Source: Yuukianura sp. NJ FZ-2021 (lineage: Eukaryota). Taken from it: a stretch of 64,000 nucleotides of DNA. Below are positions 37,598 to 64,000 of the stretch, in pieces. Location of the stretch: positions 6,324,001 through 6,388,000 of the forward strand of contig CM102289.1 of assembly GCA_046563655.1 (NCBI GenBank), given 5' to 3'. Below the pieces are notes generated by a model, which searched no databases, was not told the DNA's origin, and worked only from the letters and a program-made list of their open reading frames with translations. Position 1 is the stretch's first letter, and each line of letters opens with the position of its first letter. The position numbers and the translations under genes were made by a program.

Positions 37598-40257
37598 ATG
37601 GAAAATTATCTTGGATTTTTGGACTACGTATCAATTGTGGTGACACTTCTTGGCACAGCGTTGATTGGAATATACTTTGGTGTAAAAAATAAAACAAACG
37701 ACGATCTACTGCTTGGCGGAAGAAAAGTTAATCCTTGGGCCGTAGCGCTATCTGTCATGGCGTCTCATGTGAGTTTCCAAATTAAAAAATATTTAATTTG
37801 ATTACTTTTTTTTTAATTTCTAACAATTTGTAGATTTCGGCAGTAACAATCATAGGTAAGACTGTTACAAACACCAATTTCAAACTAATGGCTTAAAATT
37901 GCAATTTTTACAAAATTCGCTCAGGATTTCCTGCAGAAGTTTTCGGCTATGGAATTGAAATTTTCAACATGGCCATTGCAACAGTGATTGTGTTTCCAAT
38001 AAGTGTGGCCATGTTTGTTCCATTTCTTTATCCAATGAAACTCACGTCAATTTTTAAAGTAAGTAGTAAAGTAAAGAGTCGTTTCAGTACCAAACAGAAT
38101 TCAAGAAGATAACTTTTGTACACTTTTTTGGCAGTATTTAGAGCTTCGTTTCCACGATAGAACACTACGAAAATTGGTGTGTGGAATTTATATTTTTGAA
38201 CAAACTGCAGTAGCTGGAGTGGTGCTTTACGGGCCGTCACTGGTTCTGGACACATTTCTAGGCATCCCCACGTGGATGTCAATATTTGGTGTTGGAATAC
38301 TTTGCACCTTGTACACATGCGTGGTAAAGGTTTTTTTTAAATGTTTCTTCCACTCAGATTTTAAAAGTGTAGCTGCAAGTTGTTCAATTTCTAAACAGGG
38401 TGGAATTCAAGCTGTGGTATGGACAGATGCACTTCAAGCCGTCATAATGGTTTTAGGTAAAGAAAAAAAGAAAAATGTATCAAAATTTGTAAAACTGCTG
38501 ATTTTTGAATTGTGTACCCGAAAAATTTTATCTAAATTATCCAGGAATGGTAGTAATCCTGACTAAGGCTTTCATAAATTCAGACGGCATTTCCAGAGCT
38601 TTCGAAATTGCTGAAGATAATGGAAGACTCAAATTGTTCAAGTAGGTGAACTGCTTAAAAAAGTTGTTTAGAACTTGATGAATTCTTGAGACTTAAAATT
38701 GCGCTTCTGACAGAATGAATTTTGACATTTTCCAACGCCATAACTTTTTCAACTTCTACTTGGGCTATGGTTTCCTGACACTATTTCGAAGTTCAATTCA
38801 TCAACAACAAGTTCAACGGTATTCAACTCAACCCACTCTAAAAGATGCAAAGAAGTATGTAGTAACTCATAGATAAATTTTTCAGAAATTCTATATTTAT
38901 TATAACTACTAGTACTATATTTTATATGAATTATAATATGCCTTTATGCTATCCATCAAAATAGAACAATGAATCTGAGCGTCCCTGCAACCTTTGCCGT
39001 CAAAATTGTCAACGTTCTGACCGGAATCGCTATTTTTGCAGTGTACTACAACTGTGACCCCATCAAGCTCGGAAAAATTAAAAAGTTGGACCACGTAATG
39101 CCGTATTTTGTTGTTTCTGAGATGGGCCAAATACCGGGTATTCTTGGACTTTTCGTCGCCTGTATCTTCAGCGGTGTGCTCAGGTAGAAAACGTAACCCA
39201 CACACACAGAAAACGCAGCATAACTTTACACTTTGTTTTATAACTTTTAAAGTTCATTCTCATCTATCATCAATTCCTTAACGGCTGTGACCTGGGAGGA
39301 CTATTTGAGCGACATTCCAATTTTTGGAAAGATGTATGGGCGTGGTCAGGCCAATGTCTCTAGGGTGACTGGACTACTTTATGGCGTCGTGAGCGTCGCA
39401 GTGTAAGCAGAGCTTTGACTTTAAGCTAATCTCAGGTACGTTAACTCAATTACATTCACAATGTGTTGATTCCAGTGCCTTTAGTGTTCAGCACATGGGC
39501 TCCGTCTATTCTGGAGCGTTCCAAATCGTTGGAGCTTCAAATGGTGTTGTTGTGGGAGTATTCATCAGTGCATTTTTTATACGTTACATCAATGCAACCG
39601 TGAGTCGCCGCTGAATGTGAAACTGTGTGTTAATTAACCACGACATCTACTCATTTCAGGGAGCTAAATTTGGAGCAATCGTGGCATTTCCAACAATGCT
39701 TATAATTGGGTTGAGAAATTTATTCTCAGAAGTACTAAAGGAACCAATTCTTCCCACCAGTACATCAGGTTGTACTTTTGAGCAACTTACAAGTTCAACA
39801 AATTTAACAACGACCCTACCGTTGTCTAAATATGTCGCACCGTAAGTACTGCTGAAAACAAAACCGAATCAAATTCAAATTATGTCAATTTAAGGTAAAC
39901 TTTTTAGCCAAAAAGGCTCACAGACAATTTAAAATTTTAGGGAGTGGCCTCAGAAGATTTTCGTAATTTCGTATTTGATGTATCCCGTAGTTGGAGCCAT
40001 TATTACACTTTTAGTTGCTACTTGTGTGAGCTACTGTACCGGAGGTAAAAATTCAACGTCGATTTTAGTTACACTATGTGCAAAAAGTGTTTCAAATGTG
40101 TTCTTAACAACAGTTTTTAAAAACAGGGTTCCAAAATTTACAACTTATTCCAGAGGAATACCTGCATCCATTTGTGAGAAGAAACACAAAAGGGAATGTA
40201 CAATGCGGAAGTGAGATTGTGAGACAAACTGAAACAATTCAGGAAACTGAAACATGA
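37598..40257 (+). CDS. SLC5/SSS sodium:solute symporter, paralogue 4
   Basis: Same motifs and exon structure as the other three. Ends ETET*. Confidence 0.92.
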
Positions 40258-41048
40258 ATCCATAACCTGCCGCTTTAATTAAGAAAGTTATTTGGGCAAA
40301 ATTCTGATAATACCAAAAAAAGAAAACGCTTGGTAAAATAAAGTTTACGGTAATAAAATAAATAATAACAAAATTTTTATAATATTAAAACCAACCGTAT
40401 TGAGGGATCGCTCCCGTTCCCGTAAAGCAGTAAAGAAAAAACGCTTCAACATGGCGGGAGATGATTTGAAGTAGATTTTTTTACGGGACTAAAAATTTTT
40501 AAGTTTTTGATACAACTGCGTGCAAAATCGAACTGACCAATTGCTTATGGTCAACGTTCTGAAATATTTGCAGCTAAAGGAAGGAAAAACTGTCAAAGTC
40601 AGGATTTGCTGAGAAACTAGGGAACTTTCTTCAATAATGCATAAACAATCAAAAATTCCCTAAACCACAATACCAATTTTCGAAAACAATTCTTTCCTCA
40701 ACCAATTTTCTGCAAAATAATAATACCTAATACGAATTAGTTAACCGTGGAAATCTTTTCCTCAACCTGGAACTTTTCTACCAAAAAATAAAAACAATAA
40801 AAAAAAACCACAAGGACAATTATACTTGTAGTATTATAAATACTATAATAGAACTACCACATTAACAAATTCGTAAACAATTTACCTAACGTTTGTAATT
40901 TATTTAAACATCGAATTGAGTATTACTAATACCCTAAAATGATTTAAGTTAGCAACATGAGAAAAACTATTAGACTAGTATAAATCCAATCCACAAAATA
41001 CTTTTGTAAGAACAGACTTTGAAAAAAGAAGTGATTTCTTGGTCCGTG

Positions 41049-41415
41049 CTATTCCAGTGATCTGTAAGCTTGATAAGCGTTTGGATGTAATCTCTATTTA
41101 AAAAAATTAAAATCTTTGTATAAGAGTTGTATTTCGCCTTTATAATTACAATTTACCAATAGAAAAATAGTACGAAAATAATTAGGTATACCCTCAAATG
41201 CGTGATGAAATTTGATGTCGTCGTGTTGAATGCTGCAATGACTCGGCCGCACTCCATGCATTTGGCATACGATTTGTGTTCAGGCCCAATCCGAACAATG
41301 GACGTCAATTCAAAAAAAGTTCCGTTCAATATTTTCGGAAGTTTGTTCCTAAGGCGAATGCGTGGAGGTGAGAAGTACGTCGAGTCAAAGTATGGACTCG
41401 TTTGGATAAGCATTA
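41049..41415 (-). CDS. Alternative terminal module V8 of the BTB gene: BED-type zinc finger (exons 41415-41192 and 41093-41049)
   Basis: Phase-1 acceptor; PKILNGTFF...CMEC...TTSNFITHLR|RLHP...*. Confidence 0.85.
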
Positions 41416-41951
41416 CTGTTACAAATGACACATTAATTCTTTTACAATTTTCATAACCATATAATTCAGTACAACTACATTTTCATCAATTTAAAACAAA
41501 CTGCGTTTGTTGCTTTCATGAGAGTTTCACCACGCTAAACCCGGTTTAAATTCATAATGAACAACAACTTATTAAAAAGTCAAGAGAATCTGAAATCTGG
41601 TAAATTAAAAACAAAAAAGCTTCATCCAAACAACGAAGAATTTATTATTTTTGCTTCTGTAAATTAATTAAATATATAGAAAATTACTTAATTCTAAACG
41701 ATAGAAAGCTATATTCAAAGCTAATAAAACTTTTCCATCTAGCTAGAATTGGATTTCAGTAAGCAAGCAACTTCGCTTCTTCCTGTACACGCCATTAGAA
41801 CAAAGCTCAAATCCCGAGCAAGGCGTCAGCATCCTCGATGGACACTTTGTAATTTTCATAAGTTTCTGGATGATTCAACTAAAATAATTAATTCAAAAAA
41901 ATCTTCAAAAATTTTTCTTTTAAATATAAATTTTTCAAGTGCAACTGTTAC

Positions 41952-42130
41952 CCGTAAATGGCGCACAAATGCGGCTGTTCCATCATGTTCAATCCTCGTA
42001 TTACAAAAGCGACAAGTTGCAGTATGAAAAATCCGTATCTCAGAACCAACCAATCGCCTATTAAATCCGATCCACTTGTAGTAATTCCCGTTCAAAATAC
42101 GGCGATACTTTTTGCTCCGCTTAAAATTTT
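41952..42130 (-). CDS. Alternative module V7, first exon (BED-type finger; second exon unclear)
   Basis: Phase-1 acceptor; RRILNGNYY...CRFC...GTAAFVRHLR|gt. Confidence 0.75.
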
Positions 42131-42388
42131 CTTGTAAACAACAAAATTAATCAAAACAAACGCAAATGTTACGCTGCTAACCGTAAGTTTTGCTTGCTAA
42201 AAATAAACCCATCGCTTGAGAGATTCACCGCAAAATAAACAGAGGCTGGCAAACTTCATTAATTAATGGACTTCAAAAAATACTAAATTTTTATTCCACA
42301 AAAACTGAAAGATTGAGGCAATACACATTACTGCTAACATTCCTTTAGGAACTATAAATATTTCCCCGATTTGCCCTGTCTAAGTCCT

Positions 42389-42707
42389 TTACGCTAAGCG
42401 CGGCTTCTCGCTCTTGAACGCATAGTACTGCCTACTATGCTTATTCTGAAAATGAATTCAAAGTATTCAGAAAATGCTAAACCAATCATATCACTTCTCA
42501 ATTTCAATTTCAAATGTACCTTCAAATGCCGAACAAAACTTGAGGTCATGACCCCTGACAGATATGTGCCGCAGTAGCAGCAAGCAGCTCTGTACTTGTT
42601 TCGTACTATACCACTAACACAAACTCTGCTACAAACTGAAACATCTTCAAAGTATTTCCCATCCAAAATTCGTGGAACAGCCGAACTTCCACCGCCTTCG
42701 TTGTCTC
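42389..42707 (-). CDS. Alternative module V6: BED-type zinc finger (exons 42707-42520 and 42445-42389)
   Basis: PRILDGKYF...CCYC...TSSFVRHLK|NKHS...*. Confidence 0.85.
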
Positions 42708-42934
42708 CTGTTTCCAAATATTACAATCAACTACACATCACGAAAGAGCCAATCGAAAAAATTTCTCCGTACTCAATGAGAGGTTCACCGTCCGTTAAAT
42801 TTACTAGTATAATAAATCACATATTCATGTGTTGCATCACAGAGTTGAAATTTGAGCAGAAGTCTAGAAAACATCTACTATCTATTGGATGGAGGCAGAT
42901 ACAGGTCGTCAAATTGCTTTTCAGTTTTGATTGT

Positions 42935-43266
42935 TCAAGAATTTTGAAACTCTTCGTAGGATTCAGGATGTTGATGCTACAAGATAGCAAACGACAAAAT
43001 AAAATCTTGACAATTGAAACTTAATTAAAAAAAAATTACTCTCAAATGCCTGATGAAATTGGAACTCCTGTCGGCCTTATAAATGTTGCCACACGCCAAG
43101 CACTTTCCACACAACTTTACTTTCTCCCGCCCATCTTTGACGTATGTTATGGACTCGATCGGATCAAAAAATCGTCCATCTAGAATTCTCGGACCATAGA
43201 ACCTCGCACCAGCAACGGAAGACATCACACCATCCGCATGTCTTTCATCCTCATCCTCTCGAATTC
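42935..43266 (-). CDS. Alternative module V5: BED-type zinc finger (exons 43266-43040 and 42976-42935)
   Basis: PRILDGRFF...CLAC...SSNFIRHLR|HQHP...*. Confidence 0.85.
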
Positions 43267-43652
43267 CTTTCAATAACCAAAAATCCTAAACTTCTTCTAA
43301 AATAAAAATTTAAACCAAAAACCAAAAAGAGGTTCACCACAAACACAAAAGTTTAATACGTAATAACCGCCAAATTTCATTCCAAGATCAGAAAATTATA
43401 CAAAGAGTTTTTAATGTAAGAAAATTTTTTAACACACATCTAAGTTAAATTTCGTCAAACCTAACTACATTTCAAAGATTCAACAAGTGCCGAGAAGTAC
43501 AAACAGCAAATAAATATGCAACTGGAACAACGCCATCCACTAACTTATTAAATGAACAAAAAATTGGTAAGTACTGTCATACAAGTACATAATTACCCAT
43601 TAACGTAGTTTAAGTAACAATTTAGCAACTCCTTGGAACTCTTCTGTGGTAC

Positions 43653-43954
43653 CTAACGTTTGTAAAGACGGTATAACGCTGGATGCATTACCTATAATAA
43701 AAAACACGCACAACTGTTGAAACTTTGTTTTTCGCAACACAAGAGGAATATTGCAACAATTCTAAAAATCATTACCCGCAAGTGATTGACAAAATTGGAA
43801 GGTTGAACAGAATTAAAGTCCCGACTGCACTCACGACACTTTGCAATAATTCGTTCTCTCTTCCTTCCAGCATAGTCAATGTATTGAGTACGACAAAGTG
43901 TTTCAAAAAATATGCGGAACAGAGCAGCAACGCTGTATGAACCCGGTTTCAAAT
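43653..43954 (-). CDS. Alternative module V4: BED-type zinc finger (exons 43954-43776 and 43691-43653)
   Basis: LFRIFFE...CREC...PSNFVNHLR|VMHP...*. Confidence 0.85.
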
Positions 43955-44380
43955 CTGTGTAACCTAATCAATTAACCCACCTTTCTGCAATCCATTTTTT
44001 ATCAAACAAACTTTTAGACTTGGAGTATTCACCACGCTAAAAACATATAGATTCAAAGGCGCAACTCGCAACTTAAGATTTTCGAAACTTTTATATCTTA
44101 CTCTTGTTACGAATAAGAATCAATTCGGATTCCTAAGTGGCCAATAAAAGTGCCGTGTTACTCAAATAAAAAAGTGATTGTGTACGTGTTTAAACAAACC
44201 TATTTCAAATATTTCCTTGATAAATGCTCTTTAAAATTTAAGATTTTGGTTTCCGCAGTTGAGTGGAACTGTTTTTGAAACGGACGAAAGACCGCAGACG
44301 CTACTTCTTTGGCTTGCCAAAAAAAAACTTCTCCAAAATTACGACAAGAATTTTTTCAGTGCTTTAAAAACTTGTCATAC

Positions 44381-44538
44381 AATTAATTGTTTCTGGAAAT
44401 TTGCGACATTCACGGAATTGAAAGCTTGTTTACATCTAATACATGTAACACCAAAACGTTTCCAATCCTTACCGAAGTGATGCACAAATTGAGTGTAACT
44501 TTGAAAAATCTTCCATCCAGAATTAGACGGAAACCGCA
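44381..44538 (-). pseudogene. Alternative module V3: degenerate BED-like exon, not in the ORF track
   Basis: The phase-1 frame is open through CIRC...ANFQKQLI|gt, with the first His replaced by Gln. The family motif LILDGRFF lies in a shifted frame. It has its own selector at 44641-44659. Confidence 0.6.
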
Positions 44539-44802
44539 CTTCATTTAATATTAGTGGTGAAAGTAAAACTAGATCATCGTTACAGAAAACGAAAAAAATT
44601 CAAAGTTTCCAAATTTTCAAAGAATGATCGAAGTTCGTTCAAGAGTTCACCAAGTTAGCACTCGGAGCAAAGGGAAAAGTGTAAAATTGCCCTACGTTAC
44701 AGAATTCATCGCAATAAAATCCTACGCGAATTATTCAGCAATCGACCTGGATTCAATAATTTTAAAGATAAGTTACAGGCAACTAAAATTAGAGTTACGA
44801 CA

Positions 44803-45155
44803 CTACGAATACATGGCGGTATTTTTGTGTTTGTTCCTCGCTGCAGTTCTTGCTCTTTGATACTGCAAAAACGACCGTGGGTGACGATTCTAGTAAAAAC
44901 CAATTGCTCAAATGGTCAAATCAACCCAAATTCTAGATGCAAAAAGCAGTTTTTTTTTCAAAATTAGTACCTGCAAATGTCTTACAGCATTCGAACTCCT
45001 TGAAGTGTTAACGACAGCGTTGCATTGAACACACTTTGCCGAAATTCGACTACGGAAACCAGAATTTTCTAATACTTTTTCGCATGATAGAATTTCAAAA
45101 AATCTGCCATTGTAGATTGAACCCATGTACTTGTTGTACTGAAATTTCCGTCTCC
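44803..45155 (-). CDS. Alternative module V2: BED-type zinc finger (exons 45155-44971 and 44889-44803)
   Basis: SIYNGRFFE...CVQC...SSNAVRHLQ|NRHP...*. Confidence 0.85.
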
Positions 45156-45308
45156 CTTACGAAGTGAAACAAAATACAAAGTTTATAAAATAGAAAATAT
45201 TGTAAGTTTGTCGTTTAGACCAGGACGATCACCACGTTAAACTCTTATTACTGTCATTACAACGTCCTACAACTCAGAATACTATGAACTTTGACACATT
45301 GTACAGTT

Positions 45309-45644
45309 CTAATTTCTGTACTCCGCATGAAGCTTGGAATGGGCACGCTGAAAACAAATTAAATCATAAATCAACACGTTACTTAAGATGCACTTTTAAC
45401 AACAAATTGCCAAAAATGGCTTATGTGAGTATAGTTACCTTTAAATGTGCAATGAAATTTGAAGTGGTTTGTCCTACAATAGTTTGGGTACAAGAGGAAC
45501 AAACCCCAACGATTTTCCTCCGTCGTAAATTTGTCTTTTTGTCGATACAATATGAGTCCGACAAAATTTCAAAAAATTTCGGATCGAAAACACGAGGCTG
45601 TAATTTTGAAGTGAACGGAAGTCCAGGCCATGCGAGAAAATGCC
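45309..45644 (-). CDS. Alternative module V1: BED-type zinc finger (exons 45644-45439 and 45347-45309)
   Basis: PRVFDPKFFE...CSSC...TTSNFIAHLK|RAHS...*. Confidence 0.85.
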
Positions 45645-46464
45645 CTGTGTAATGTCGCAATATTTTCTAGTATGCAACTTTAGTGTTTTAATAGAATCGC
45701 ACGGTATGGGTCATCGTCGACCACTTAAGTCATACGACGCCTCTGAGAGGCACACCGCGTTTTAAGTCACCTTTGTCAAACTTTAAAATTTTGAACATGG
45801 GTGAAAATATTCCAAAAGCTTCCACCTCCACTGATTCAGCAATAAACTGGAAACAACCTTATTACAAAGCAAAAACCAAACCAGAACCAGCCCAGACTAA
45901 ATACTTGCAATATGTCATGTGAATACATTAAAAAAACTGCACATACAACTAAATAAGTTTCTTTAACACAAGATAGATACACCTCGAATCCTTATAATCA
46001 AATTCACAATATTTATGCAGCAAACAGCAGGGCGACTGCTACATTTCAAATTAGAACAAATCCGTCCTTTGAGACTTGAAAATGGATAGCCATTTCCATT
46101 TAAACGTACACGTTATGCAGTAGTATTTTTCCGAAAATAACTCCCATAAATGTTCTAATGGGTTTACACGCCATGGCTAGGGGTGTTACAGTCTGTCTCA
46201 GAAAAGGTATTTAGAAATCACATTGGAATATTGGAAATATAAATAATATGTGACTGCGTAAAAGTTGTATCCAACATCTAAGATTTCATTTCTTGAAAGA
46301 AGTGAACAATTTCAATTTCAACGAAACTGTAGCGTTATGTCGAGTTACTTTATGACAAAGTTGGTTTTAAGAGAATTCCTTTGGAAAATAGACTCAGGTT
46401 GAACCGAACTTTCAAAGCTAAATAAAAGTCAAACCTTCTGAAACAGACAGTACCCCCTTTGACT

Positions 46465-46490
46465 GTTTTAACGTGGTGAACCTCTCAAGG
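46465..46490 (-). promoter_or_regulatory. Putative splicing docking site (RNA 5'-CCUUGAGAGGUUCACCACGUUAAAAC-3')
   Basis: Lies 40-65 nt into the intron after the last constant donor (46530). It is reverse-complementary to eight motifs, one upstream of each variable module. Confidence 0.8.
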
Positions 46491-46530
46491 TCGCCATGAC
46501 GACAAATTAAAAAGATGGAAGCACTCTTAC

Positions 46531-47851
46531 CTTCTCCATCGGAGCCACCACCTTGACCACCCGTCCGTTCCGTTCCATCGTCGTTATTCACATAACCATC
46601 CCCTGGTTCCTGCTCACTATTTCCAGGATTATCATCGCCGATTTTAAAACGTTCGGAAAAGCCTAGAATATGTAAAAAGGAAACAATAAATGAACAAAAA
46701 ACTTTTTTGAAAAAAGTAATCGGAGTAACCAAAAGTATGTGTAAGTAGTGACCCTAACACATTGAAAACCTACTTGATTGGCTCATTGAATTGTCTCCTT
46801 CTCGTTCTTCCTCATCCAAATCCACTTCAACATCCACAACGGGAACGTCTGCCTCGATCTTAACCTGCAATAATAAAAACAGCGGGTCGCTCAGTACGAT
46901 TATAAACTCAGAACTCAGAATTCGTTTAAGATTGATAGACAATCTTAACAGCTTGCCTCTTGGCCTCCATAAGCCTCTGGCTCTTCCATCAATGCTGCTA
47001 GCGATGCGAAGTTATCGTTCTCACGAGATGAGGATTCATAGAACGGAGGTGTTGAAATTGATCCCACGGTCTCTAATGGGTCTTGCGGCAGCACGTTTAG
47101 AGCGTCCTGAAGAGGGTCCACAACTTGTGAAACCCTTTGTACCTGCGTGATTTGCGTCGTAGGAATTTTAGGATCCATTCTAGGTTTCTTGATAGCTGGC
47201 ATAGAAGAGGAAGCGGTGTGAGAAGTAGTAGAAGTGGCTGTTGCTGATGCGAATGGGCGTGTCGAAGAAATACGGGTAAGTTGCACGGTGGACGTGGAAG
47301 GAATAGTAATAGGAGCAGGAGCTGCTGGCGGTGGCGATGGAGCAGCAGTACTTGGTGCTATATGAGGTGTTGTTTTCTGTCGCTTGCTTCCAATGTCTTT
47401 CAAAATAATTGTATCCGACGAAATACTATTTGTAGTTGTTTCAACCTCTGTCAATCCGCGTATTTTGAGAGACTGAGCAACAGCAAGGAGGGAGTTCAAA
47501 TCTTCATGTGCAATGCTCACTTCACCACGGTACATGTACTGAATTAGCGCTTTCAGTTCAGCATACTTGACGTCCTTCAGGAAGAAAATTGGATGCTTGC
47601 TAGTGTCTAGATCCAGCAATTTCTAAACGCACACCAACAGTTAAAAATAACAAAACAGCTTGCTTTTTAGTAAAATGAGTTACCTGGAAGTAGGGACTGC
47701 ATGCTGAAAGTATCACACGATGTGCTCGAATATACTGACCCTCACATGCGAGCGTAACATCGACGAATGATTCACTAGCCAGCAACACGTCGAATAAAGA
47801 CAAAACAGTTCCTTGATGACTCGTCCATCGAAGTCTGATTTGTCCATCCAT
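46531..47851 (-). CDS. lola: Constant exons of a Tramtrack-group BTB protein most resembling Longitudinals lacking (lola-like): 47851-47684, 47622-46957, 46864-46774, 46662-46531
   Basis: [18 protein letters not shown]...[24 protein letters not shown]...[27 protein letters not shown]...AQSLKIRGL. It ends at a strong donor GAAG|GTAAGA in phase 1. The symbol reflects similarity, not proven orthology. Confidence 0.8.
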
Positions 47852-48947
47852 TTCTTCAACACGAGACTTAGCTGCGCTCGTGTTCTGAAAATATACAATC
47901 TATAATATAAATACCAGAAGATGATTAAATGGTAATAAAAATTTATATTAATACAACGTGTTATTACCAGTGGATGATGAATACTACTACCGTTTCGAAC
48001 TCCGTACTCGGTGTCGGTATCCGTAACTTTATAAAACAGTAGTTTTTAATTTGTTGATTCTAACCGAAGATCGATCCGGTGTAATCCGACTCCTGGCCCT
48101 CCTCTTGTTATGTTTTTGCTGATTGATGAAATGATGCCGACCGATCAATCGATTGATCTTAGTATTCGAAAAATAAAAAACCCGAATTCTGAATATGAAT
48201 TTCGATGATGATGTCTCAAAGGCAAACATTAAAAAAAAATATCCCTCTCCTTTAGTAATCCGTGTCGTTCAAAAATGTTCGCACATTACCCGTAATGCAT
48301 AGACAAAGTTGGGAGCACAAACTAAATTACAACTGCTTGGTGAGATACTTAACAAGATGTTATTGTGTATTATTTCAAATAAATATTATAAATTGAAACA
48401 AATTAATTTATTATTTTTCATAAATAGTATGAGTTTTTTGAATAACCTATTTATTACCTGCAGGAAGAAGGTTTCAATGATGATTGTTGCCCATACAATA
48501 GGGCGGATGGCGGTAGTGTACCGGTTGGATAAATTTCAAATATTTCAGTTTTTTTCCACTTTCAAATCTCCAGCGCTGGATTGCCCCATCATATCACCGC
48601 CACCGCGTTATCTGCAAATCCGCTTATACCGATGACATAAACCCTGCCCTGGCTTCCGCTACATCGTAGCGCTTCACTCTTCTCCGCTTGATGCAGGAGT
48701 TCGCGAAGTAGCGAATCGCTGCCAGCTCATTTCCGGTCGACGCTTTAGAATGGGCAAAGTTAACGGCAACCGTAACATGTCTAATTTCAAGCTTCTTCAA
48801 CACAACAGAATGTGATTGGGTGGAATGCCATTGTAGTAATTCAATTAACCCCTCCGGTAATTAGACAAACAGTTCTGGAAACCTCCAATGAAATTTACTC
48901 GTGAAGTATACACCAATGCATTTAAATATTATGTCTTCATATATTAT

Positions 48948-49748: not shown

Positions 49749-52631
49749 TTAATAGTAATCCTCTTCCTCACCATAGCCTTCACCCGCTTCTTCTCTGAAT
49801 TGTGACAAAAGTTGACTGGCTGAAAGGGTTCCCTCGTTGTCATCTTCATCTTCGTAGGCCTCATCGTCATCGCCATAATCCTCTGCGGATTGGTCAAATG
49901 CTTCGGGTGGCAGTGGACCCGACTCAATGACAACAGGACCTTCCTCGATAACGACTTCTTCTGGCTCTTCTACGACGGAATCTATTCGTTCGCTACTGTA
50001 AGAACTTGACCTGACCAATTCTCTGTCAGACTCTCCTTTCATGGGTTTCAGAACAATACTCTTGGTGTCGGGGTCAATCATGACTGATACAGATGAACTG
50101 CTCTTCAGACTTGAAATTGATTCGGATTCAGACTTGTACCGCTTGCGTGGCGTGCGACCATACGAATCTTCTCCAGCACGAGCTGCATTACGCCTGGGAA
50201 TAACTGGGCCAGATTCGATGACTGTCATGAAATCATCATTGAATTCATCTGAGCTTGGATTCAATGCTACTTCATTTCCAATTGGTAAGGATTCGGAGGT
50301 ACTACTCAGGGATTTCAAAACTTCATAATTGATCTTGGATGAAAGTTTTTTCTCTAACATAATTTTGATCGCTTCGCCTGAAAACACGGAAAATCAGAGA
50401 TGATTGACTTGAGATCAGAATTTCGCTAAAGAAACAAGAACAAGCATTGCAGTTACCAGCTGTTTTTGCTTTGTACTTTTCCCTGGAACTACCGCCCTTT
50501 TCTTTCATATTTCTACGTTTCTTATCGAATTTCCCGGCTTTGATATCTTCCTCCATTTGGATTCTCTTTTCTAATTTACACAAAACGATAATACATTAAC
50601 GACAAAGGCTTACATACTTTGCAAAAGCTTACGTTCTTGGCTGACGATATACTCGTTGTTTAGTCGCTCCCAGAGGATTCTTTTTCTCTCCGCTTCTACG
50701 TCGTTCATAATATAAGCATCAATTTCGTTGTCATCGATTCCTGTTAAATCCAGCTCCCCGCCTTCCTGCACTTCCTCCTCGTCCGAACCTTCCTCCTCTT
50801 CTTTTTCATTCAAAGCAAAATCTTCTAAATCGTTTGGTTCAGAAGGCGGTGGCATTAGAAGACGATCCCGATCCACTCCAGACTCTGATTTGACTTCTCG
50901 TTTGACCTCTTTCTTTACATTGACTTTAACATCAGGTTTGAATTTAAGCGCCGGCAATGGAGTTGTAAGGGCGATATCTCGAATGATGGAACTCTCGGTT
51001 GGGATTGTGACAGTGTCGGAGATGATTTCGCTGATAGATGATAGTGTCGCTTCTTCAATTGCTCGAGATTCAGTATCTTCAATTTGAGATTCTTGTGTCC
51101 CTTTGAGAGCTGGGCAAGGAACAGTGATTTGATCACTTGGTAAAGATCTTATTAGCAATAAAATCGTCCTTACCTTTCTCTCTTCGCTTCGTTTTTCTTT
51201 TCTCCAGTTCGGACTCAATTTTGTCTTGAAGTTCGTCTAATTCGTTGGAAATTGCGCCACTATCCAACAGCTGATAAAAAAAAACTATTTACATTACAAT
51301 TCCAGAACTATCAAAATATGTAACGTCAAAAGGGCAACCTTTTGCAGTTGATCTCGATCCTTTATGCGAGCTGCCTTGAATGCTGGTGGATCGTGCTCCT
51401 CTTCAAGGTCAACGGTCATGAATTCTTCCATCGTGAGAGAACTCGAAGGTGTTTCGCCAAATTCGATTAATCTAATAAAAACGAAAGGCTATTCTAAGCA
51501 GCCAGCTTCTCGGTCACCCATAACACACATAAATTACAAATGGATATAGTAGAGAAATGGATCACCTAGATCCTAGATAAACATAATAATATTTGATACC
51601 TTCTGCGTAAAGTAGTTTCATGAACTTTCACAACATTGATTATATCCTGGACTGTTCGAGAAAATCCATGAATGCGTGCGGCGATAAGCAGAGCTGGAAA
51701 TAGAAAAAAAACATGTCGAACAATGCGAACTTAATAATTGAGACGAGTTGGGTTGGATAGAATGCGTTAAAAACAGTTAACCTGCTCCACAAAGCCCTGA
51801 TGGTCGCCGACCGAAATGTAGCCAGTCTCGTTTCATACGCTGAACCAATCGCAGGGCAGTGACAGAAACTTCATGGGTCTTTGGTTCCAGGTCGAATTTA
51901 TGAGCAAATCGTAGAATGTACATGCAGGGATCAACAGAAGGAATGTTGATGAAAAGCGCTCGCGAAATTTGAAGGTATGCTCTACCGAGGGCATACACGT
52001 CCATTTGTACAACGTCGCTGAAGTCGATCAGCAAATCTATCCAAATTAAAATCATCATTTTGGTACAGACACGCACGACACAGTAATAATAAACGGATTC
52101 TTTCTTACGCGGAGTTCCCTCCATTCTACATGTCATGTAGACACATGCAGCGATGGTAAGGGGATGCCTACGTCCCTTAGTAATTTGCTTGTGAAGGGCC
52201 ATTTTGAAGAAGTTGAATGCGACATCAATGCAATGTTGATTTAGCCTGTAATAACAAACAAGGTACGTACATACGAAACGTCCGCCATTAGCTCAACTCA
52301 ACATTTCATGTCGTAAGTACTACCTGAGTTGTTGAGCGACATCCGTAATTCGTTTTTTCGCTAACCGCAGGGTTATTTCCCTAGATTCCTTGCCAATCCC
52401 ACTATGGAATCCAGCTCCTCCAGCAAGGGCTCCACCGCCACGACTTTCAGCTGATACGAATTGACCTACAGCGGATGCCACACCATGACCATCTTCTTCA
52501 AAGGTCACTTCTGAAACAATAATTGATTCTTCTAAGACGAAGCCGCAGTTGGTACAGACAGAATCCCCACGTGAAGGGTCTGTATCAATTTCACTGCATC
52601 CGCACTGTCGACAACTTGTAACCCCCGACAT
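49749..52631 (-). CDS. Brf1: TFIIIB 90 kDa subunit Brf1, multi-exon
   Basis: Zn ribbon CRQCG...[18 protein letters not shown]; cyclin folds [10 protein letters not shown] and [24 protein letters not shown] motif; TBP-binding block [22 protein letters not shown]. Confidence 0.95.
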
Positions 52632-53139: not shown

Positions 53140-56100
53140 TTACTCAAATGGATTCAGACTAGGATCGTAGTCGTCTTCTTCTTCGAACGGATTTTTCGCC
53201 ACTGGTAGATTATCCATATTCAGGAATGGATTGTTCGCGTCGTCATCTTCTTCAAATGGATTCTGCTTCGCAGGTTCCTTAACTTTGGTAACACTGGATG
53301 GTGGTTTCCTCTGTGCCTGCGTCGAACTTGTAGCTGACATAGGGCCCACTTGCAATCCAGGAACGCCCGAGGAGATGACCTTGCCACTACTGGCCGACAC
53401 GTACTGCTTCGACTCAAAGGACAATGGAACAATAGGCACAGACTTAGTAGACTCTTTCATCGCATCCAGAAGTGAATCCATGTTGCTGTGACGATGACTG
53501 CTTTCGCTCATTCGATCACGACTTCCAGGTTTTGATCCTTCGTTGAGCCTTAGCCGACCCTCAGAAACATTTTCTGAAACATGGTAATAACTTTTGTTAA
53601 AATTAAATCTCAATTTCAAATTCTCCTGATTTCATACCCATGACGGAGACAATGCTGGCTGGTCCACGTACTCTTTCTAGATTCTTCTTCTGCAGTTCTG
53701 CTGCAACGTCTTCTTCGCGGTCTGATGACACAAATATTCCTTTGGCAAAGAAATCTGCTACGACGGAAAATGAATTCGACTTGGCAGTGCTAAGCTTCAT
53801 AGCAAAATCTGCATCCATAACGGCTCTCGATGGCTTGTTCTTAAAGCATTATCAATAGCAACAACATTGATTAGAGCAATTAACTTGGTTAGCCGAACTA
53901 ACATCTCAACTCAACCACAAATAGTTGCTTACTTTCAATTCAGCTCCCAACAGCTCCTTATGTTTATTGAGACAAACTGGACAGTCCTTGTCATTCTCTG
54001 CATAACTCTCGAAACAACTGGAATCAAAGGCAAAGAATAACATTTTGTGAAGGAAAGGTTAATTAAGTAGTTGATGTCGATGTCACAATAAACTTACTGA
54101 TGATGGAATGAATGAAGACAAAGGAAATGGACGGATGGAAATTCCAGTTTTTGCATACAAGCATTACACCTTGATCCTTGAAACACTGACGGTTTTGTTC
54201 GTATGCTTTCTGTGTGTTGCTTAATAGTTTTCGTGTTTTCTTGTAATTTTTGTGCCTCCGCTTCATCTGCTTCCATCTCTGTCCGATCTAGCACTCGAGT
54301 CAAAAAGTTACGAACACTCCCCAGTTTCAACTTCGTTTGACAAAGCTTGTCTAAGATTGGCAACGGTTCCAGTAGTCCTTCTTCTAGTAACTTATCCAGA
54401 ATTTCTTGAACAATGAACTGTGGGATATCCGCATCACCTGGAGATGTGATGAGGTAAAACGCATCTTTCCAAAGAGCCGGTTTGTTCTTGGCGTATTTTC
54501 GAACTGTTTCTATAAAATTCGGCCATAAGGTAACTGAGGCTTGAGCAGCACTGAAGCGAATTGCCAGAAGATCGCTATGTAGTCCTAACTTTTCATAGGC
54601 GATAATTTCTCCTTGGCTGAACCCATACTATAAACATAATTTTTCCAAATTGGTATTAAATTTTTCAGCGACATGTTAGTTTTAACGTTCGAGAGGAAGA
54701 AATACTTTGTAATAAGTAATTCTTTGTATGTACTTACCTTTTTGCAAGCAAATAAAGCGCGAGCCCAATCCCATGAAGGACACTCTGGAGCTTTAGTAAG
54801 AAGAGCTAAAAGCTTTTCAGCTGCTGGAAACTCCTCTGATGACCATTGTTCCAAATAAGTTTCCAACAGAAGATTCATTAATGGACCATCATGGGCTTCG
54901 AACTCCAAACAAATGTTTTCCAACAGAGGTGTCAGGATATCTTTATTTGCCACAAACAAGTCAACGAGTTCTCTTTTTGCAGGAGATTCACAGAGCAGGC
55001 GCACAATCTTTCTGGTGCCTTCTGAAAGAAAAATTACTGGAATTAAATTACACAACTTAACAGCTCGAACCAACACCAATTTAACTCTTTGAACGTACAG
55101 CACAATACTAATAATACTAATGTAGTAATACCTGTTGACTTGTTGTCTGTTTCACAAAGAAGTGAAACAAGTGCATGTCCGTATCTTTTCAAAATCACTT
55201 CAGCATTGTCTCCACGGATGGCATTTTCCAGGGTGTTGTATAAATCTTCCCTAGAAGGATCACGAACATCTTCTAACAAAATCTGCAGAGCACTTCCGTA
55301 GAGCTGATGTTTTTGGGCTAGCTGATATGCATGCTTAGACATACCGCCACGACGAAACACTTTGATGGCCGTTTCCGGTTCAAGAAAATCACATGACGGA
55401 TCACCAACATATTTTTCAATTTTTTCATTCAGCTTCAGTTTGGTGAGGCAGTTGAGGAGGAGACTGGTTAGGTCGGGAGTGACATACGGTGTTTTATGAA
55501 CGACTTCCAAATATTCCAGAAGATTTAACACTCGTGAAGCGTCGATGTACTGTAAAGAAGTGATACTTACTATAAATTACATTCATTTAGTAGTTGAAAC
55601 GATTTGCATTACCTTTCGAACAACGTATGAAGCTTCCAACTTCCCAACAGTTTTACAGTACTGACGAATAGCTCCATCCAAATCCCCTTTTGCGTATAGG
55701 TGATCACCGTATTTCCGAAAGACATCAGCCATAGAATCACCGTCAAAGTTGTTACTTTTAGCAACCTTGATGGCCAGATCGTAGTGATTCTTGCGGTAGA
55801 AAACTCCCATTTTCGTCTGCAAATCTTTTTCTTTTAGCTGCCAAAGAGTTCCATCGGAGGTTATAAGAAAGAAACACCCCCATTCACCAACAGCGACTTT
55901 CATGGGATGAGAAGTGACAAGAGCCGAAGAAAATCCAACGTATTTGTTACCACAGTCAAAAACTATAATGTTATACCTAAACAGTAAATTATTAAAAACA
56001 GGTTTTAAAGTTTGCCCATACTACAACTAAGTTTAAAGTCTTACGATTCTGAAGACAGTTTGGAAACGATAAGGAGGTGACCGCGAAATGAATATAAATA

Positions 56101-58384: not shown

Positions 58385-60611
58385 TTAGCGTAAACTCAAA
58401 TTCGTATCATAGTCGTGGGCAAAAAGCGCGTACCCAACAATTGGTTCCAAATTTGGCGGTGGGCTCCCTTCCGGGAGACTAAATTTGAACTTTTGAAGCA
58501 GAGTTGTAATGAATATGAAAATGCTGTCACGAGCCAATACTTCTCCAAAGCAATTCCGTTTGCCTACAAACAATTGAAACGATTTAAAGCTGGTTTTTAA
58601 ATAGCAACCAGTTTTCTTTTCCTCTTTTTTAAAAATAGTCGACCTGTGCTAAATAGAAGTTGGATTCTTTCCACTTTTTTGGAATCCAATTTCGGAAAAG
58701 AATCGAAGAATCTTTCTGGACGAAAAACTTGTGGGTCTCCCCAAAACGCTTCTTCAAAGAAAATACTTTGCAGATTCATCATCATAGCTGTTCCCTGTGA
58801 ATTAAAAAGGTTTTAAAGTTAATCCGGATTATTAGCTTAATTCTTATTATTAAATTTCATTTTGCTAACTTTCTTGATACAGTACTTTCCATAGACAATC
58901 GGGGCAAGGGCTTCCCTTGGAATACCCATAACGATTTCGCGACTCCATCGCATGCCTTCTAATATAACGGCTTGGGTATATGGCATTCTAAATCAAAAGA
59001 AAATATTCTAAATATACACAAAACGTAACATCATGAGCTAAATAAGTTTTTGCCGTTATTACGAAAATTTATCGTCAATGCTGGGAATTCTGGTTCCGAT
59101 GACTTCAGAAATTTCTTGGTAAACTTTCTGTTGTACAGTTTGATTTGCCACTAGTTGAAGCAAGATAAAGTTGAGAACGTTACTGGTTGTATCCATTCCA
59201 GCTTGAAGAATGTCTGCAAACAGTAGACCAAATTGGTCCTCTATAAAACAAGAGTTGGACTTTCAAACAAGATTTCAAAATAGTGTCGATGTATTTTTAT
59301 ATTTAGTTATTTGCTACCAGTGAACAACGGATTTGTTTGTCCAGTAGTGGCCACTTCTTCGTCCATTTTTCTCAAAAAGTCATCCGCGAAACACGTTGGA
59401 TTTTTGGCATAATTGCCCGTCTTTCTCCTTTCTCTAAGGAAATTCTAAGCACAGCATTAATATTAAAATATAACATTGCTAATAATAAATATCACTTTAA
59501 ATTTAAATTAGTTTAGTGATTGGAACTTTCTTCAAAGTGCTAAATGTAGTCGAATTATAATACAAAATTACTATGATATAAGAATGTACTTTGTTTTACC
59601 AATGCATCAGCTCGAAGTGTATTTATTCCTCTCATTTGTACGTTGTATCCAAGGGCTTCTGGGAAAATGAACCTTAAGAACGGAAACGCAACCATGAGAC
59701 CTGCGCCAAACACTCCCTTTCTGATCAGTTCATTTGAACTTTTGATCCAATTTTGAAGCACTTTGTCGTTGTAAGCATAACGCTGTCCTGTCATCCAAGT
59801 CGTCATGATGTTTGCAAAAGGTAAGTTGAAATAATCCGAATATATATGGAGAACTCGGTCACCGTTGGGCTGCGCATGTGCATCCTCTTCCATAAATTTA
59901 AGAAATTCAGTCAATTCGTCTATCAGCATGTTGCGCATGGCTTCTCGGTTGCCATAACCGTAATTCGCAAGAGTCTTTCGACAAAATGTACGAGTCTTCG
60001 ACCATGAAACAAGATCGGTGCAAAAACCTAAACCTTCAAAATTACCCAAATTACACCAAACCAAATAAAGGTAAATTACACTATAATTGACTCAATTAAT
60101 ACCAATGTCCTTTCGTTTGAGATTTCTGTCCCATATAACACCGTTACAAAACCTTCCAAGAGCTTCATCTCTTGTAAAAATCGAACGCACTGCTTCATAC
60201 GATGATAGTACGACTGTGAAAAACATGATACTATCATATGGATATAATATTCACTTGTGCCTAACCGAACGCACTGGCGCCTGCGTCATGCCCATTACAC
60301 TTTTACCTGTATCAACCAATCCCATTTTGATACTCATGATGTCTCCATATTTTTGAGCCATTTGATGCAAAGCAATGTGTGCATCCTTATACTGCATGCC
60401 AACCTGGATCAAATTTCCAAACGGAGGAATTCGAACGGGACCTTTAGAAATTTTAGTTTCAAAAATTAGATATTGTGGTAGATAAATTTAATAATTTTTA
60501 AATAAAACTGATTAAATTAAAGTTACCGGGCGGTCTTCCATCATTTCTGTTTTCAATATAAAACAAAATCAAGTAAAGGACTACAAAAATTGTTAGCAAA
60601 ACTTCTATCAT
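58385..60611 (-). CDS. Cytochrome P450, CYP2 clan (CYP15/303/305-like), complete
   Basis: N-terminal TM anchor followed by PPGP; WSKTR (WxxxR); I-helix QAGMDTT; EGMR (ExxR); FRPERF; heme motif FSTGKRNCFG. Confidence 0.93.
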
Positions 60612-61211: not shown

Positions 61212-64000
61212 TTACCATGACCGTGAGGTAAGGATAACATCGTAATCATGAACGCAGAGAGTGTATCCAACCACTGGTTCCAAATTTGGCGGTGAGCTTC
61301 CTTCCGGGAGACTAAATTTGAACTTTTGAAGCAGAGTAGTAATGAATATGAAAATGCTGTCACGAGCCAATACTTCTCCAAAGCAATTTCGTTTGCCTAC
61401 AACAATTGAAACAATTTGAAGTATTTTTTAACCATTAAGCAGTTTTCTTTTCCTCTTTTTTTTATAAATAGTTGACCTGTGCTAAATAGAAGTTGGATTC
61501 TTTCTACTTTTTTGGAATCCAATTTCGGAAAAGAATCGAAAAATCTTTCTGGCCGAAACGCATTAGGATCTCCCCAAAAGGCTTCTTCAAAGAAAATACT
61601 GTGCAGATTCATCATCATGACTGTCCCCTGTGAATCCAACAGTATTCAATTAACTTTAAATATTCCGCAGACCCCAATTAATGTTTAATACGGAATATAC
61701 TGTACTAACCTCCTTAATACAGTAATTTCCATACACGATTGGAGCAAGTGCTACCTTTGGAACACCAGTAACCACTTCGCGACTCCACCGCATACCTTCC
61801 AGTATAACAGCTTGTGTATAAGGCATTCTTTTTTAAAAAAGAAAAAGTTCTTATTCAAAATTTAAAAAAACACGACAACCAGCAGAACCCGACGCTTTTT
61901 CTTTACGCAAATTTATCCTCAATGTTGGGAATTCTAGTTCCGATGACTTCCGAAATTTCTTTGTAAACTTTTTGTTGTACGGTTTGATTTGCCACTAGAT
62001 GAACCAAGATAAAGTTGACGACATTGCTCGTCGTATCCATTCCAGCTTGAAGAATGTCTGCAAACAGTAGACCAAATTGGTCCTCTATAAAACAAGAGTT
62101 GGACTTTCAAACAAGATTTAAAATTTATAGTCGATGGTATTTTTTTTTAATTGTTGTTTGTTACCAGTGCACAACGGATTTGTTTTTCCAGTTGCCACTT
62201 CTTCGTCCATTTTTGCCAAAAAGTCGTCCGTAAAACACGTTGGATTTTTGGCATAATTTCCCGCTTTCCTTCTTTCTCTAAGGAAGTTCTAAACCAAGAA
62301 TTCTTACTATATAATTCTCACCAGTCTTGTCATTGTAACTTTAGTAATTGAATAATGCGGTGGAATTAGAATACAAAGTTATTATATAATATATGTAGTA
62401 ATATATAGTTTTGAGTTTACCAATGCATCTGCCCGAAGTGTATTGACTCCTCTCATTTGTGCATTATATCCAATAGCTTCTGGAAAAATGTGTATGAGAA
62501 ACGGAAATGCAACCATGAGGCCTGCAGCAAAAGTTCCATTTCTGGCTACCTCATTTGAACTTTTGACCCAATTTTGAAGCACTTTGTCGTTGTAAGCATA
62601 ACGCTGCCCTGTTATCCAAGTCGTCATGATGTTTGCAAAAGGTAAGTTGAAATAATCCGAATATATATGGAGGACTCGGTCACCGTTGGGCTGCGAATGT
62701 GCATCCTCTTCCATAAATTTAACGAATTCAGTCAATTCGTCTATGAACATGTTGCGCATGATTTCTCTGTTGCCATAACCGTAATTCCGAAGAGTATTTC
62801 GGCAAAATGAACGCGTTTCCGCCCATGCAACAGGGTCGGTGGAGAAAATTAGACCTTCAAAATTAAATCTTATGGACGTGTGTTATGCGTCTAATAAACA
62901 GTAATCGTTAAATTTAGTAACCACGATAACCGAGCTTGTTTAGTTAGTAAAAGATGCAGACATCGACAAAAAGAAACGCCCTCATGGGTGGTGAAAAAGG
63001 ATCAGTGCAAATATGATCAAAAATAGTATGCACTTTCAAACAAACAAAATACTGACTCAAAGTTCGGTTGCCGTCGTCTGGGTTTTGTCAACAACTTTTT
63101 TGAGAATGCGACATTGAAATTGAAAAATGGTTTTGCTCAGCGTAGGAAGGTCGTACAATGACCTACAATATATCAAACTTTAGGAAAAGACTTGATCTAG
63201 CATCATGCCCGAGGAAATTACAAAAATTTAGTTCTATCTATGTAAAAATAGAGGTGGAATGTTTGGGTCAATTTTTTTCACAGTTAGAAGTAAAATTTTG
63301 TAATTTCCTCGGGCATGCTACTAGATCAAGTCTTTTCCTAAAGTTTGATATATTGTGGGTCATTGTATACGACCTTCCTACGCTGATCCAGACCATTTTT
63401 CATTTCATGAGTTACAGTCGCATTTTGACCCCCAGTTTCCAGGGTATTCGCGACCCTTATGAAAGAAAATTTAGATCAATAGCCAATGAGATCATACGAT
63501 TTCTTGTCACATGTCTCAATAAATACAAGCTGGATTTGAATCAGTTACCAATGTCCTTTCGTCCGAGATTTCTGTCCCATAAAACGCCGTTACAAAACCT
63601 TCCAAGGGCTTCATCTCTTGTAAAAATTGAACGTACTGCTTCATACGATGATAGTACGACTGTCAATTAACATGATACCATGATATGTACATAATATTCA
63701 CTTGTACTCTGGCGCCTGCGTCATAACACGTTTACCTGTATCAACCAATCCCATTTTGATACTCATGATGTCTCCATATTTCTGAGCCATTTGATGCAAA
63801 GCAATGTGTGCATCCTTAAACTGCATGCCAACCTGGATCAAATTTCCAAACGGAGGAATTCGAACGGGACCTAGAGAAAGTTAAATCCAAAAAATTAATC
63901 GTTCAAAATACATCGTAATTAAAACTTGATACAATTGAAGTATACCACTTACCAGGCGGTCGTCCACGTTCATTTTTGTTGTCAATGTAAAACAAAATTA
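61212..64000 (-). CDS. Tandem paralogous cytochrome P450 (start codon lies just beyond the window end)
   Basis: Exons are highly similar to 58385-60611 and carry the same P450 motifs. Confidence 0.92.
63100..63426. mobile_element. MITE/foldback-like element in a P450 intron
   Basis: Near-perfect inverted arms of about 120 bp (about 63112-63240 against 63280-63409) around a short spacer. The equivalent intron in the paralogue is only about 65 nt. Confidence 0.85.

Follow-up and report, generated by a model that had tools for sequence, protein, structure and literature searches.

A springtail lola-like BTB gene with a tandem array of intron-split BED-finger cassettes and a putative RNA docking site

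We analysed 64,000 nucleotides (nt) of the genome of the springtail Yuukianura sp. NJ FZ-2021 (GenBank assembly GCA_046563655.1, contig CM102289.1, positions 6,324,001 to 6,388,000 of the forward strand); this whole stretch is referred to as the window, and positions are counted from its first letter. Reading of the sequence and of its stop-to-stop open reading frames (ORFs) placed a BTB domain and a downstream series of alternative DNA-binding cassettes on the minus strand, with all gene features running from 47851 to 41049. The interpretation that we favour, with a probability of roughly 0.78, is that this is one lola-like BTB gene whose mutually exclusive terminal BED-finger cassettes would be chosen by competing RNA pairing. 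It draws on features that can be read directly from the DNA, namely the anatomy of the locus, the identities of the BED and BTB domains, the complementarity and uniqueness of the pairing elements and their conservation in another species.

Eight cassettes of 0.5–0.7 kb each (V1 to V8) lie in tandem downstream of the donor of the last constant exon, within 5.5 kb. The first exon of every cassette (exon a) starts at a phase-1 AG acceptor and ends at a GT donor that immediately follows HL[R/K/Q] (QLI in V3). The lengths of exon a from V1 to V8 are 206, 185, 158 (or 188), 179 (or 188), 227, 188, 179 and 224 nt, all of which are of the form 3n+2. An earlier note on this DNA had described eight same-strand modules with these phase-1 acceptors and first-exon lengths and with a phase-0 intron after HL[R/K/Q], and both reading and a script confirmed the positions and phases; the boundaries of V4 were read by eye and then checked by script.

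The second exon of the cassettes (exon b) was sought by scanning the stretches downstream of exon a for an AG acceptor followed by a frame of the form xxH...stop. Exactly one such histidine mini-exon was found in each of V1, V2, V4, V5, V6, V7 and V8, encoding 12–28 residues and preceded by an intron of 63–98 nt. The earlier note had counted six modules of this kind, having missed exon b of V2 (44889–44803). In these seven cassettes, and not in V3, the second histidine is residue 3 of exon b, giving H-x4-H across the junction. When joined in silico to the constant exons, each of the seven intact cassettes gave a single uninterrupted ORF between the ATG and the stop of the cassette, 362–442 residues long according to the exon-2 donor used.

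Cassette V1 (45309–45644) is composed of exon a at 45644–45439, a 91-nt intron and exon b at 45347–45309, which supplies the second histidine and the stop. V2 (44803–45155) has exon a at 45155–44971, an 81-nt intron and an exon b that starts with NRHP and runs for 28 residues to its stop. V4 (43653–43963) has exon a starting at 43954 (or 43963) and ending at 43776, an 84-nt intron and exon b at 43691–43653, whereas its neighbour V5 (42935–43266) has exon a at 43266–43040, a 63-nt intron and exon b at 42976–42935. In V6 (42389–42707), exon a at 42707–42520 and exon b at 42445–42389 are separated by 74 nt; in V7 (41807–42130), exon a at 42130–41952 and exon b at 41878–41807 are separated by 73 nt. 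The last cassette, V8 (41049–41415), has exon a at 41415–41192, a 98-nt intron and exon b at 41093–41049. The AATAAA signals that had been claimed to follow V6, V7 and V8 were located at 42295–42290, 41646–41641 and 40904–40899, respectively.

The V3 cassette (44381–44568) is frameshifted. Its ILDGRFF motif (in the ORF 44410–44544) and its CxxC (in the ORF 44375–44599) are in different frames, the first histidine is replaced by glutamine, and no histidine mini-exon was found in its downstream stretch. Judged by its sequence, V3 is a decayed relic, leaving seven intact cassettes, not eight. The motif proposed to precede CxxC in all modules is present generally, with two qualifications: it is degenerate in V4, and it lies in another frame than CxxC in V3.

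The cassette proteins are only 19–32% identical to one another. A module profile built from sequences that include seven cassettes of the window detected no further module on either strand among all 1567 six-frame ORFs of the window. The profile scores of the member cassettes, such as the 47 bits of V4, are circular because these cassettes were used in building the profile.

We compared the first exons, unspliced and on their own, with the Pfam zf-BED family (PF02892; cut-off 20.6 bits). Matches were obtained for six of the eight: V8 (24.0 bits, E 3.9e-5) and V5 (21.3 bits) were above the cut-off, and V6 (19.6 bits), V1 (17.7 bits, E 0.0036), V7 (17.1 bits) and V2 (16.2 bits, E 0.011) were just below it. 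Every match ends at position 40 of the 44 in the profile, which is the position of the intron. The region of the last ligand is absent from all of these queries, because the last four profile positions lie in the mini-exon. In the same Pfam scan the first exons of V3 and V4 gave no zf-BED match, none of the cassette first exons matched FLYWCH, and the single zf-C2H2_4 match was a weak one to V4 (E 0.095). Made with first exons, the comparison with zf-BED and FLYWCH that the earlier note had proposed came out on the side of its BED assignment.

BED fingers bind zinc through ligands arranged as C-x2-C ... H-x3-5-H, a pattern credited to Aravind (2000). In V1, V2 and V4 to V8 the CxxC and the first histidine are encoded in exon a and the second histidine in exon b. 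For V8, 19 of 30 matches in the ESM Atlas were to BED clusters, with a best score of 0.92. The AlphaFold2 model of P0135, a relative in which the domain is unsplit, has three strands and a helix, and its predicted local distance difference test (pLDDT) values are 86–96 in 10-residue blocks over residues 61–110. A profile search of the sequences in the PDB gave weak matches to the BED domains of ZBED2 and Hermes (E 0.14–0.15). The Pfam and ESM Atlas matches and the ligand pattern support the conclusion that the intact cassettes each encode a BED zinc finger split by an intron.

Upstream of the array, the constant part of the gene is read as four exons. Exon 1 (47684–47851) begins with the ATG at 47851, encodes the N-terminal half of the BTB domain in 56 residues (Pfam BTB, E 1.4e-11, profile positions 2–38) and ends at the phase-0 donor CAG/gtaact. 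Exon 2 (46957–47622) encodes the C-terminal half (Pfam BTB, E 9.8e-9, profile positions 53–100) and a linker rich in serine, threonine and proline. Its 3′ end has two phase-0 candidate donors, a GT after 47143 and a GC (GAG/gcaagc) after 46957, and in silico joining through either of them produces single ORFs. A BTB-only protein model from a relative, P0002, can be aligned with exon 2 past the proximal donor as far as EEPEAY, close to where the ORF ends (234 columns, 38% identical), so the distal donor, or the use of both, is favoured. If exon 2 were left unspliced, its ORF would end at the TAA at 46947–46945, and read-through to this stop is a possible BTB-only form of the gene. Exon 3 (46774–46864; 91 nt) is acidic and is bounded by a phase-0 acceptor and a phase-1 donor, as read from frames and AG/GT boundaries. 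Exon 4 (46531–46662; 132 nt) has a phase-1 acceptor and the phase-1 donor GAAG/gtaaga, which fits all of the cassettes.

The named relatives of exon 2, among the matches listed, are Lola, Tramtrack-like, Bric-a-brac, Broad and Jim lovell proteins. Within the best 120 exon-2 relatives, Drosophila Lola isoforms came top over both BTB halves combined, with 59% identity in each half. The only solved-structure match to the C-terminal half was the TTK-type (Tramtrack-type) BTB domain of CG6765 (8rc6, E 1.9e-5). The hallmark of the TTK group is given as FxLRWN in the N-terminal extension (PMC11426971, available in part); residues 5–10 of the present protein, IRLRWT, keep the central LRW and have isoleucine for phenylalanine and threonine for asparagine. 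By its Pfam matches and closest relatives the BTB domain is lola-like and of the Tramtrack group, a group marked by multimerisation into hexamers. The earlier description of the protein as lola-like was borne out in this sense, as a resemblance to Lola and not as demonstrated orthology.

The evidence for RNA pairing begins at the exon-4 donor. Reading by eye revealed an element like TTAGCGTGGTGAAyCTCTCA before each cassette, and the reverse complement of this element just behind the donor. The core of the putative docking site, TTGAGAGGTTCACCACG (46472–46488, minus strand; 17 nt), lies 43 nt downstream of the exon-4 donor and is complementary to all of the selectors; no other inverted copy of the element occurs in the window. 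The selectors share the core GGTGAAyCTCT.

For each acceptor, the 330 nt before it were searched for the best partner of a 34-nt docking region, and the duplex energy was computed. The selectors lie 54–96 nt upstream of the cassette acceptors, and the seven duplexes range from -29.4 to -36.3 kcal/mol. The strongest is formed by the selector of V1 (45735–45762; 91 nt upstream of its acceptor, -36.3 kcal/mol), followed by that of V8 (41511–41538; 96 nt, -32.5 kcal/mol), which was also recognised as inverted repeat I6, 21 nt long and 90% complementary to the docking site. The selectors of V4 (44016–44043; 62 nt upstream of the acceptor at 43954) and V7 (42215–42242; 85 nt) both reach -31.2 kcal/mol, that of V5 (43320–43347; 54 nt) reaches -31.1 kcal/mol and that of V6 (42776–42803; 69 nt) reaches -30.3 kcal/mol. 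The weakest of the seven belongs to V2 (45217–45244; 62 nt, -29.4 kcal/mol) and coincides with inverted repeat I14 (18 nt, 89%). The decayed cassette V3 also has a decayed selector (44634–44661), for which the value is -22.4 kcal/mol.

As controls we took 300-nt blocks from outside the locus, 187 from each strand. None of the 374 blocks reached -29.4 kcal/mol; their mean was -17.7, with a standard deviation of 2.95 and a minimum of -27.2 kcal/mol. The V3 value was also reached by 15 of the 187 minus-strand blocks. The position of the selectors is also seen when every minus-strand 30-mer of the window is scored against a 46-nt docking region: ranks 1–6 and 8 fall just upstream of V1, V8, V5, V7, V4, V6 and V2, with V3 following at rank 20. 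The docking site's own complement aside, the best plus-strand partner of the same 46-nt region had -28.3 kcal/mol. Over a 21-nt core, each selector forms 13–17 Watson-Crick and 1–3 G-U pairs, and different selectors pair with different ends of the docking core. A search of Rfam returned no family in the region 40000–48500.

Relatives of the cassettes were collected with a profile search of 1.84 billion representative proteins, which gave 60 matches at E <= 0.001. Many of these are short ORFs with the pattern P.ILDGKFF...AKC..C...TSNF..HL[KR], ending in a V that corresponds to GT at the same place as the donor of exon a. The most informative comparison was with L001, a 2936-bp metagenome contig from another species that carries P0130 and P0128. 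It contains three same-strand cassettes, all with histidine mini-exons, and two of them are complete, each with a phase-1 acceptor. V6 has its orthologue in P0130, which scores 128 with it and at most 89 with other cassettes and has a similar mini-exon; the first module of the contig is nearest to V5 (80, against at most 60). With P0130 matching V6 and the first module matching V5, the V5–V6 order is kept in L001. In two of the three L001 cassettes (69/70 and 2290/2291) the intron lies one codon later, after HL[RK][KR], and the histidine is residue 2 of the mini-exon, leaving the H-x4-H spacing unchanged. No recognisable ORF was found in the gap of ∼1.3 kb between the first and second modules.

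Two selectors were also identified in L001, roughly 30–60 nt upstream of the two complete cassettes. They are the best plus-strand partners of the docking site of our window, at -31.0 (position 1511) and -29.8 kcal/mol (position 2013), and the next partner is at -22.0 kcal/mol. A single docking site beside the constant splice site, one selector per variant and conservation across species are among the features looked for in a docking/selector system. All three are seen here, the docking site in this window and the selectors in both loci, and the locus is a candidate for such a system.

The same elements could instead be binding sites for splicing factors, or leftovers of duplication, with cassette choice made by proteins and by competition between poly(A) sites alone. 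The conserved core GGTGAAyCTCT could equally be a protein-binding motif, tandem duplication carries flanking sequence along with the exon, and many genes with 3′ cassettes work without pairing, according to the part of PMC6191721 available to us. However, neither protein sites nor duplication would predict that the docking copy is inverted and unique. Apart from A/T-rich matches, no non-coding family other than the selector recurs from unit to unit, the coding TSNF..HL block being repeated too; other non-coding sequence has diverged beyond recognition between cassettes of such low identity, whereas the selectors keep their Watson-Crick pairs. Another species, with cassettes ∼30% identical to those of the window, has kept the selectors, and the one decayed cassette is accompanied by the one decayed selector. 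We therefore regard an explanation without pairing as very unlikely.

Several observations weigh against a pairing-controlled BTB gene with BED cassettes. V4, V5 and V6 each have more than one candidate phase-1 acceptor, and the ends of exon 2 and the whole of exons 3 and 4 were placed from frames and splice motifs only. Rank 7 of the window scan is an unrelated site at 268–239 (-30.0 kcal/mol with the 46-nt docking region). The number of 14-mer motif matches is not significant by itself: there were six where 3.24 would be expected, a number that 12 of 100 shuffles also reach. The case for pairing rests on position and duplex energy; all six matches are inside the locus. The L001 pairing was computed with the docking site of this window and not with the other species' own, and a docking-like sequence (-30.7 kcal/mol in duplex with the docking region of this window, on the opposite strand) lies in the coding part of the first L001 module, at ∼20–47, where it may be due to chance or may be a second pairing partner. 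Foldseek of the P0135 model against the PDB gave no match at E <= 0.001, and VIA-align gave a best Z of 4.6 and no BED entry among the 50 matches listed. These structure searches were uninformative; a small zinc finger that has a long helix makes a poor query. The hAT matches of the transposase-like relatives described below are sub-threshold in Pfam. Finally, V2, V5 and V8 contain in-frame ATGs.

These ATGs bear on a third possibility, that the modules are relics of BED-carrying (hAT-like) transposons, or small independent genes derived from them, and were never part of a BTB protein. The unsplit relatives P0135, P0172, P0198, P0199 and P0126 start with their own methionine and run into transposase-like bodies, and no BTB domain was detected in the 20 of the 60 profile-search matches that were scanned, which include all 14 longer than 250 residues, nor in two word-index matches. 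Modules with their own start codons that never join the BTB exons were what the earlier note had named as evidence against its gene; V1, V4, V6 and V7 have no in-frame ATG, and the array holds no transposase ORF among the ORFs of the window. All of the cassette acceptors are in phase 1, matching the phase-1 donor that ends the constant part, the selectors can pair with a sequence next to this donor, and orthologous cassettes stand in the same order in another species. That the modules are such relics or independent genes is most improbable.

The transposase-like relatives are of interest for the source of the BED domain itself. Unsplit copies stand at the start of proteins from an aphid (P0198), an ant (P0199), Bactrocera (P0126) and a hoverfly (P0125 and P0133). 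P0126 has zf-BED and behind it two matches short of their Pfam cut-offs, hAT-like_RNase-H with 18.7 bits (E 0.0021; cut-off 27) and then Dimer_Tnp_hAT with 13.5 bits (E 0.062; cut-off 21.4). In P0199, DUF659 was matched at E 0.0069, and Pfam gave BED only in P0198. PDB sequence searches with P0198 and P0126 returned no transposase and no Hermes match. A further relative, P0167, reads through what by eye looks like an in-frame intron at the position of the cassette intron. A plausible source of the cassette is a hAT-type transposase gene with an intron in its 5′ end, from which both exons and the intron would have been captured. The suggestion that the BED domain is hAT-derived is in this way made plausible by the transposase-like bodies, with the hAT assignments themselves staying below the Pfam thresholds.

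The following mechanism is what we infer for the gene. The four constant exons would encode a predicted multimerising BTB domain and a linker, and would end in a single phase-1 donor. Each intact cassette would provide, in two exons, one BED finger together with its stop codon, and probably a poly(A) site of its own. One cassette would be used per mRNA, the choice being guided by competing RNA pairing in which the docking site behind the constant donor binds one selector at a time. Such pairing would loop out 0.9–5.1 kb and bring a rather weak cassette acceptor to within ∼100–140 nt of the donor, a spacing close to the size of the genome's ordinary introns; those in the window cassettes and L001 are 63–115 nt long. 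The cassette's own phase-0 intron would afterwards be removed normally. Splicing from cassette to cassette would be out of frame because the internal intron is in phase 0 and the cassette acceptors are in phase 1. The mRNA would end at the stop of the chosen cassette, probably at its poly(A) site, and the product would be an oligomerising BTB scaffold with one of up to seven single BED fingers, whose DNA binding we take from their domain type. The earlier proposal of up to eight specificities from one BTB scaffold stands in its principle, as cassette use is supported by the phases, the selectors and the recurrence in another species; the number is reduced to seven by the relic V3.

We also counted pyrimidines in the 20 nt upstream of the splice sites. 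The cassette acceptors at 45644, 45155, 43266, 42707, 42130 and 41415 have 9–14 and the mini-exon acceptors 12–15, a small difference. The lower count at the cassette acceptors would fit sites that need activation by pairing.

One of the closest parallels to this arrangement is the exon-6 cluster of Dscam1, in which, as Graveley is said to have described in 2005, a docking site lies behind the constant exon and a selector before every variant. As in Dscam1, the selectors found here are complementary to overlapping parts of one docking core, which would allow one pairing at a time. Unlike the 48 variants of Dscam1, which are internal exons of a cell-surface receptor, the 8 cassettes here are terminal, have two exons each, belong to a predicted transcription factor and are described from sequence. 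An alternative BED finger occurs in Drosophila BEAF-32A and BEAF-32B, two isoforms that have their self-association domain in common and are told apart by an alternative exon for a BED finger. In BEAF-32, unlike the present gene, the alternative exons are 5′, there are only two of them and there is no BTB domain; we know of no RNA-pairing mechanism for BEAF-32.

Tandem multi-exon terminal cassettes are chosen by docking/selector pairing in the Drosophila genes PGRP-LC, CG42235 and Pip, in which the selectors were duplicated with the cassettes (PMC6191721). Those genes differ from ours in having 3 to 7 cassettes and in not encoding transcription factors. The authors of that study, in the portion accessible to us, state that pairing was not observed in other genes with 3′ tandem clusters, and BTB genes are not mentioned there.

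In its protein architecture the gene resembles Drosophila lola, with an N-terminal TTK-group BTB domain on constant exons and many alternative 3′ zinc-finger cassettes. The lola cassettes are of the C2H2 type in 17 of 20 isoforms (PMC11426971), whereas those described here are intron-split BED fingers. Isoforms of lola are partly trans-spliced, and no docking/selector system is mentioned for it in the texts examined. The gene is also like Drosophila mod(mdg4), where a BTB scaffold is combined with ∼30 alternative C-terminal ends, mostly transposon-related FLYWCH domains. It is unlike mod(mdg4) in having BED instead of FLYWCH, and in having all cassettes in cis on one strand, where mod(mdg4) has them on both, with clear complementarity. 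The mRNAs of mod(mdg4) are reported to be exclusively trans-spliced from independent promoters, and RNA pairing was tested there and rejected (PMC13490949, seen in part).

The fly loci raise the question of whether the springtail cassettes, too, could be transcribed from their own promoters and trans-spliced to the BTB exons, the docking site and selectors then pairing between molecules. The loci classically known for trans-splicing are BTB genes that offer a choice of many 3′ ends (PMC11426971 and PMC13490949, as far as available), and RNA pairing promotes trans-splicing of sDscam in mites (PMC9258826, likewise in part). Each selector follows shortly after the stop and poly(A) signals of the previous cassette, making separate transcription units conceivable. 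However, all eight cassettes are on the same strand and close behind the constant donor, so that cis-splicing suffices, and tests in mod(mdg4) indicated that its trans-splicing is not driven by complementary pairing. We consider trans-splicing unlikely here and prefer the choice of cassettes in cis by competing pairing.

The capture of transposase exons has a precedent in host-transposase fusions, in which the DNA-binding domain of a transposase, with its own splice sites, became exons of a host regulator (bioRxiv 10.1101/2020.05.07.082677, consulted in part). Unlike those vertebrate cases, which are single captures, the captured unit here would have been amplified into an array, in a hexapod, and its hAT origin is only suggested. 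The combination with a BTB domain appears to be new. In the part of it that was available, a survey of TTK-type BTB proteins names C2H2, HTH (helix-turn-helix) and FLYWCH partners only, and the word BED is absent from its accessible text and its supplementary files 1–12, with files 13 and 14 being places where BTB plus BED could be listed (PMC11426971). A full-text literature search for BTB-BED, BED-BTB, "BTB and BED" and BTB-zf-BED gave nothing, table S1 of PMC12062965 being one place where such an architecture could be listed, and a paper on transposon-derived factors (PMC10027918) contains no BTB-BED link. We likewise found no case in the literature in which docking/selector pairing selects the DNA-binding domain of a transcription factor. 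BTB factors with many alternative ends are thus known with C2H2 (lola) and FLYWCH (mod(mdg4)), and a BED version is not known from the literature found.

The way in which such a locus is annotated was seen in a relative, where the BTB model P0002 and a separate cassette ORF, P0132, are both listed with a 49,579-bp contig and probably lie on that one contig. P0002 is a BTB-only read-through model, as expected from the earlier remark that gene finders would miss a gene of this kind. Because gene finders split such loci into a BTB-only model and orphan mini-ORFs, annotations of arthropod genomes may lack other genes of this type. If its junctions are confirmed, the locus would offer a compact natural system of 7 kb for RNA-pairing choice of terminal cassettes, a dated example of the capture of transposase exons followed by tandem expansion, and a counterpoint to the BTB loci of flies, whose trans-splicing still lacks an explanation. 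A bolder extension, which we hold to be unlikely, is that this gene is the springtail counterpart of lola, that its whole DNA-binding repertoire derives from a captured transposase BED cassette, that Dscam-like pairing makes the choice in each transcript, that a multimerising BTB factor is put together combinatorially from seven specificities, and that choice in cis is an older answer to the problem for which flies use trans-splicing at lola and mod(mdg4).

Other genes were recognised in the window. A membrane-protein-like ORF on the plus strand at 39933–40214, belonging to a gene also seen at 38075–38566, ends ∼0.7 kb from the poly(A) signal of V8. With this ORF ending so near, the 3′ end of the BTB gene would converge on the plus-strand gene and V8 would be the last cassette. 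On the minus strand, upstream of the BTB gene, there is a TFIIB-related (BRF1-like) exon at 51777–52292, named by eye, and exons of VPS11 at 54094–56020, one of which is 63–64% identical to those of the springtails Allacma fusca, Orchesella cincta and O. dallaii (three of four matches), as would be expected of a collembolan that has no close annotated relative. Two long, mutually similar ORFs at 59555–60091 and 62382–62882, also on the minus strand, look by eye like tandem cytochrome P450-like exons. At 9561–12380 on the plus strand, ORFs of 424 and 442 residues are rich in proline, serine, histidine and glutamine and end in C2H2-type fingers; they lie in the one part of the window that is rich in GC (10–12 kb, 50% GC) and look like a large zinc-finger gene.

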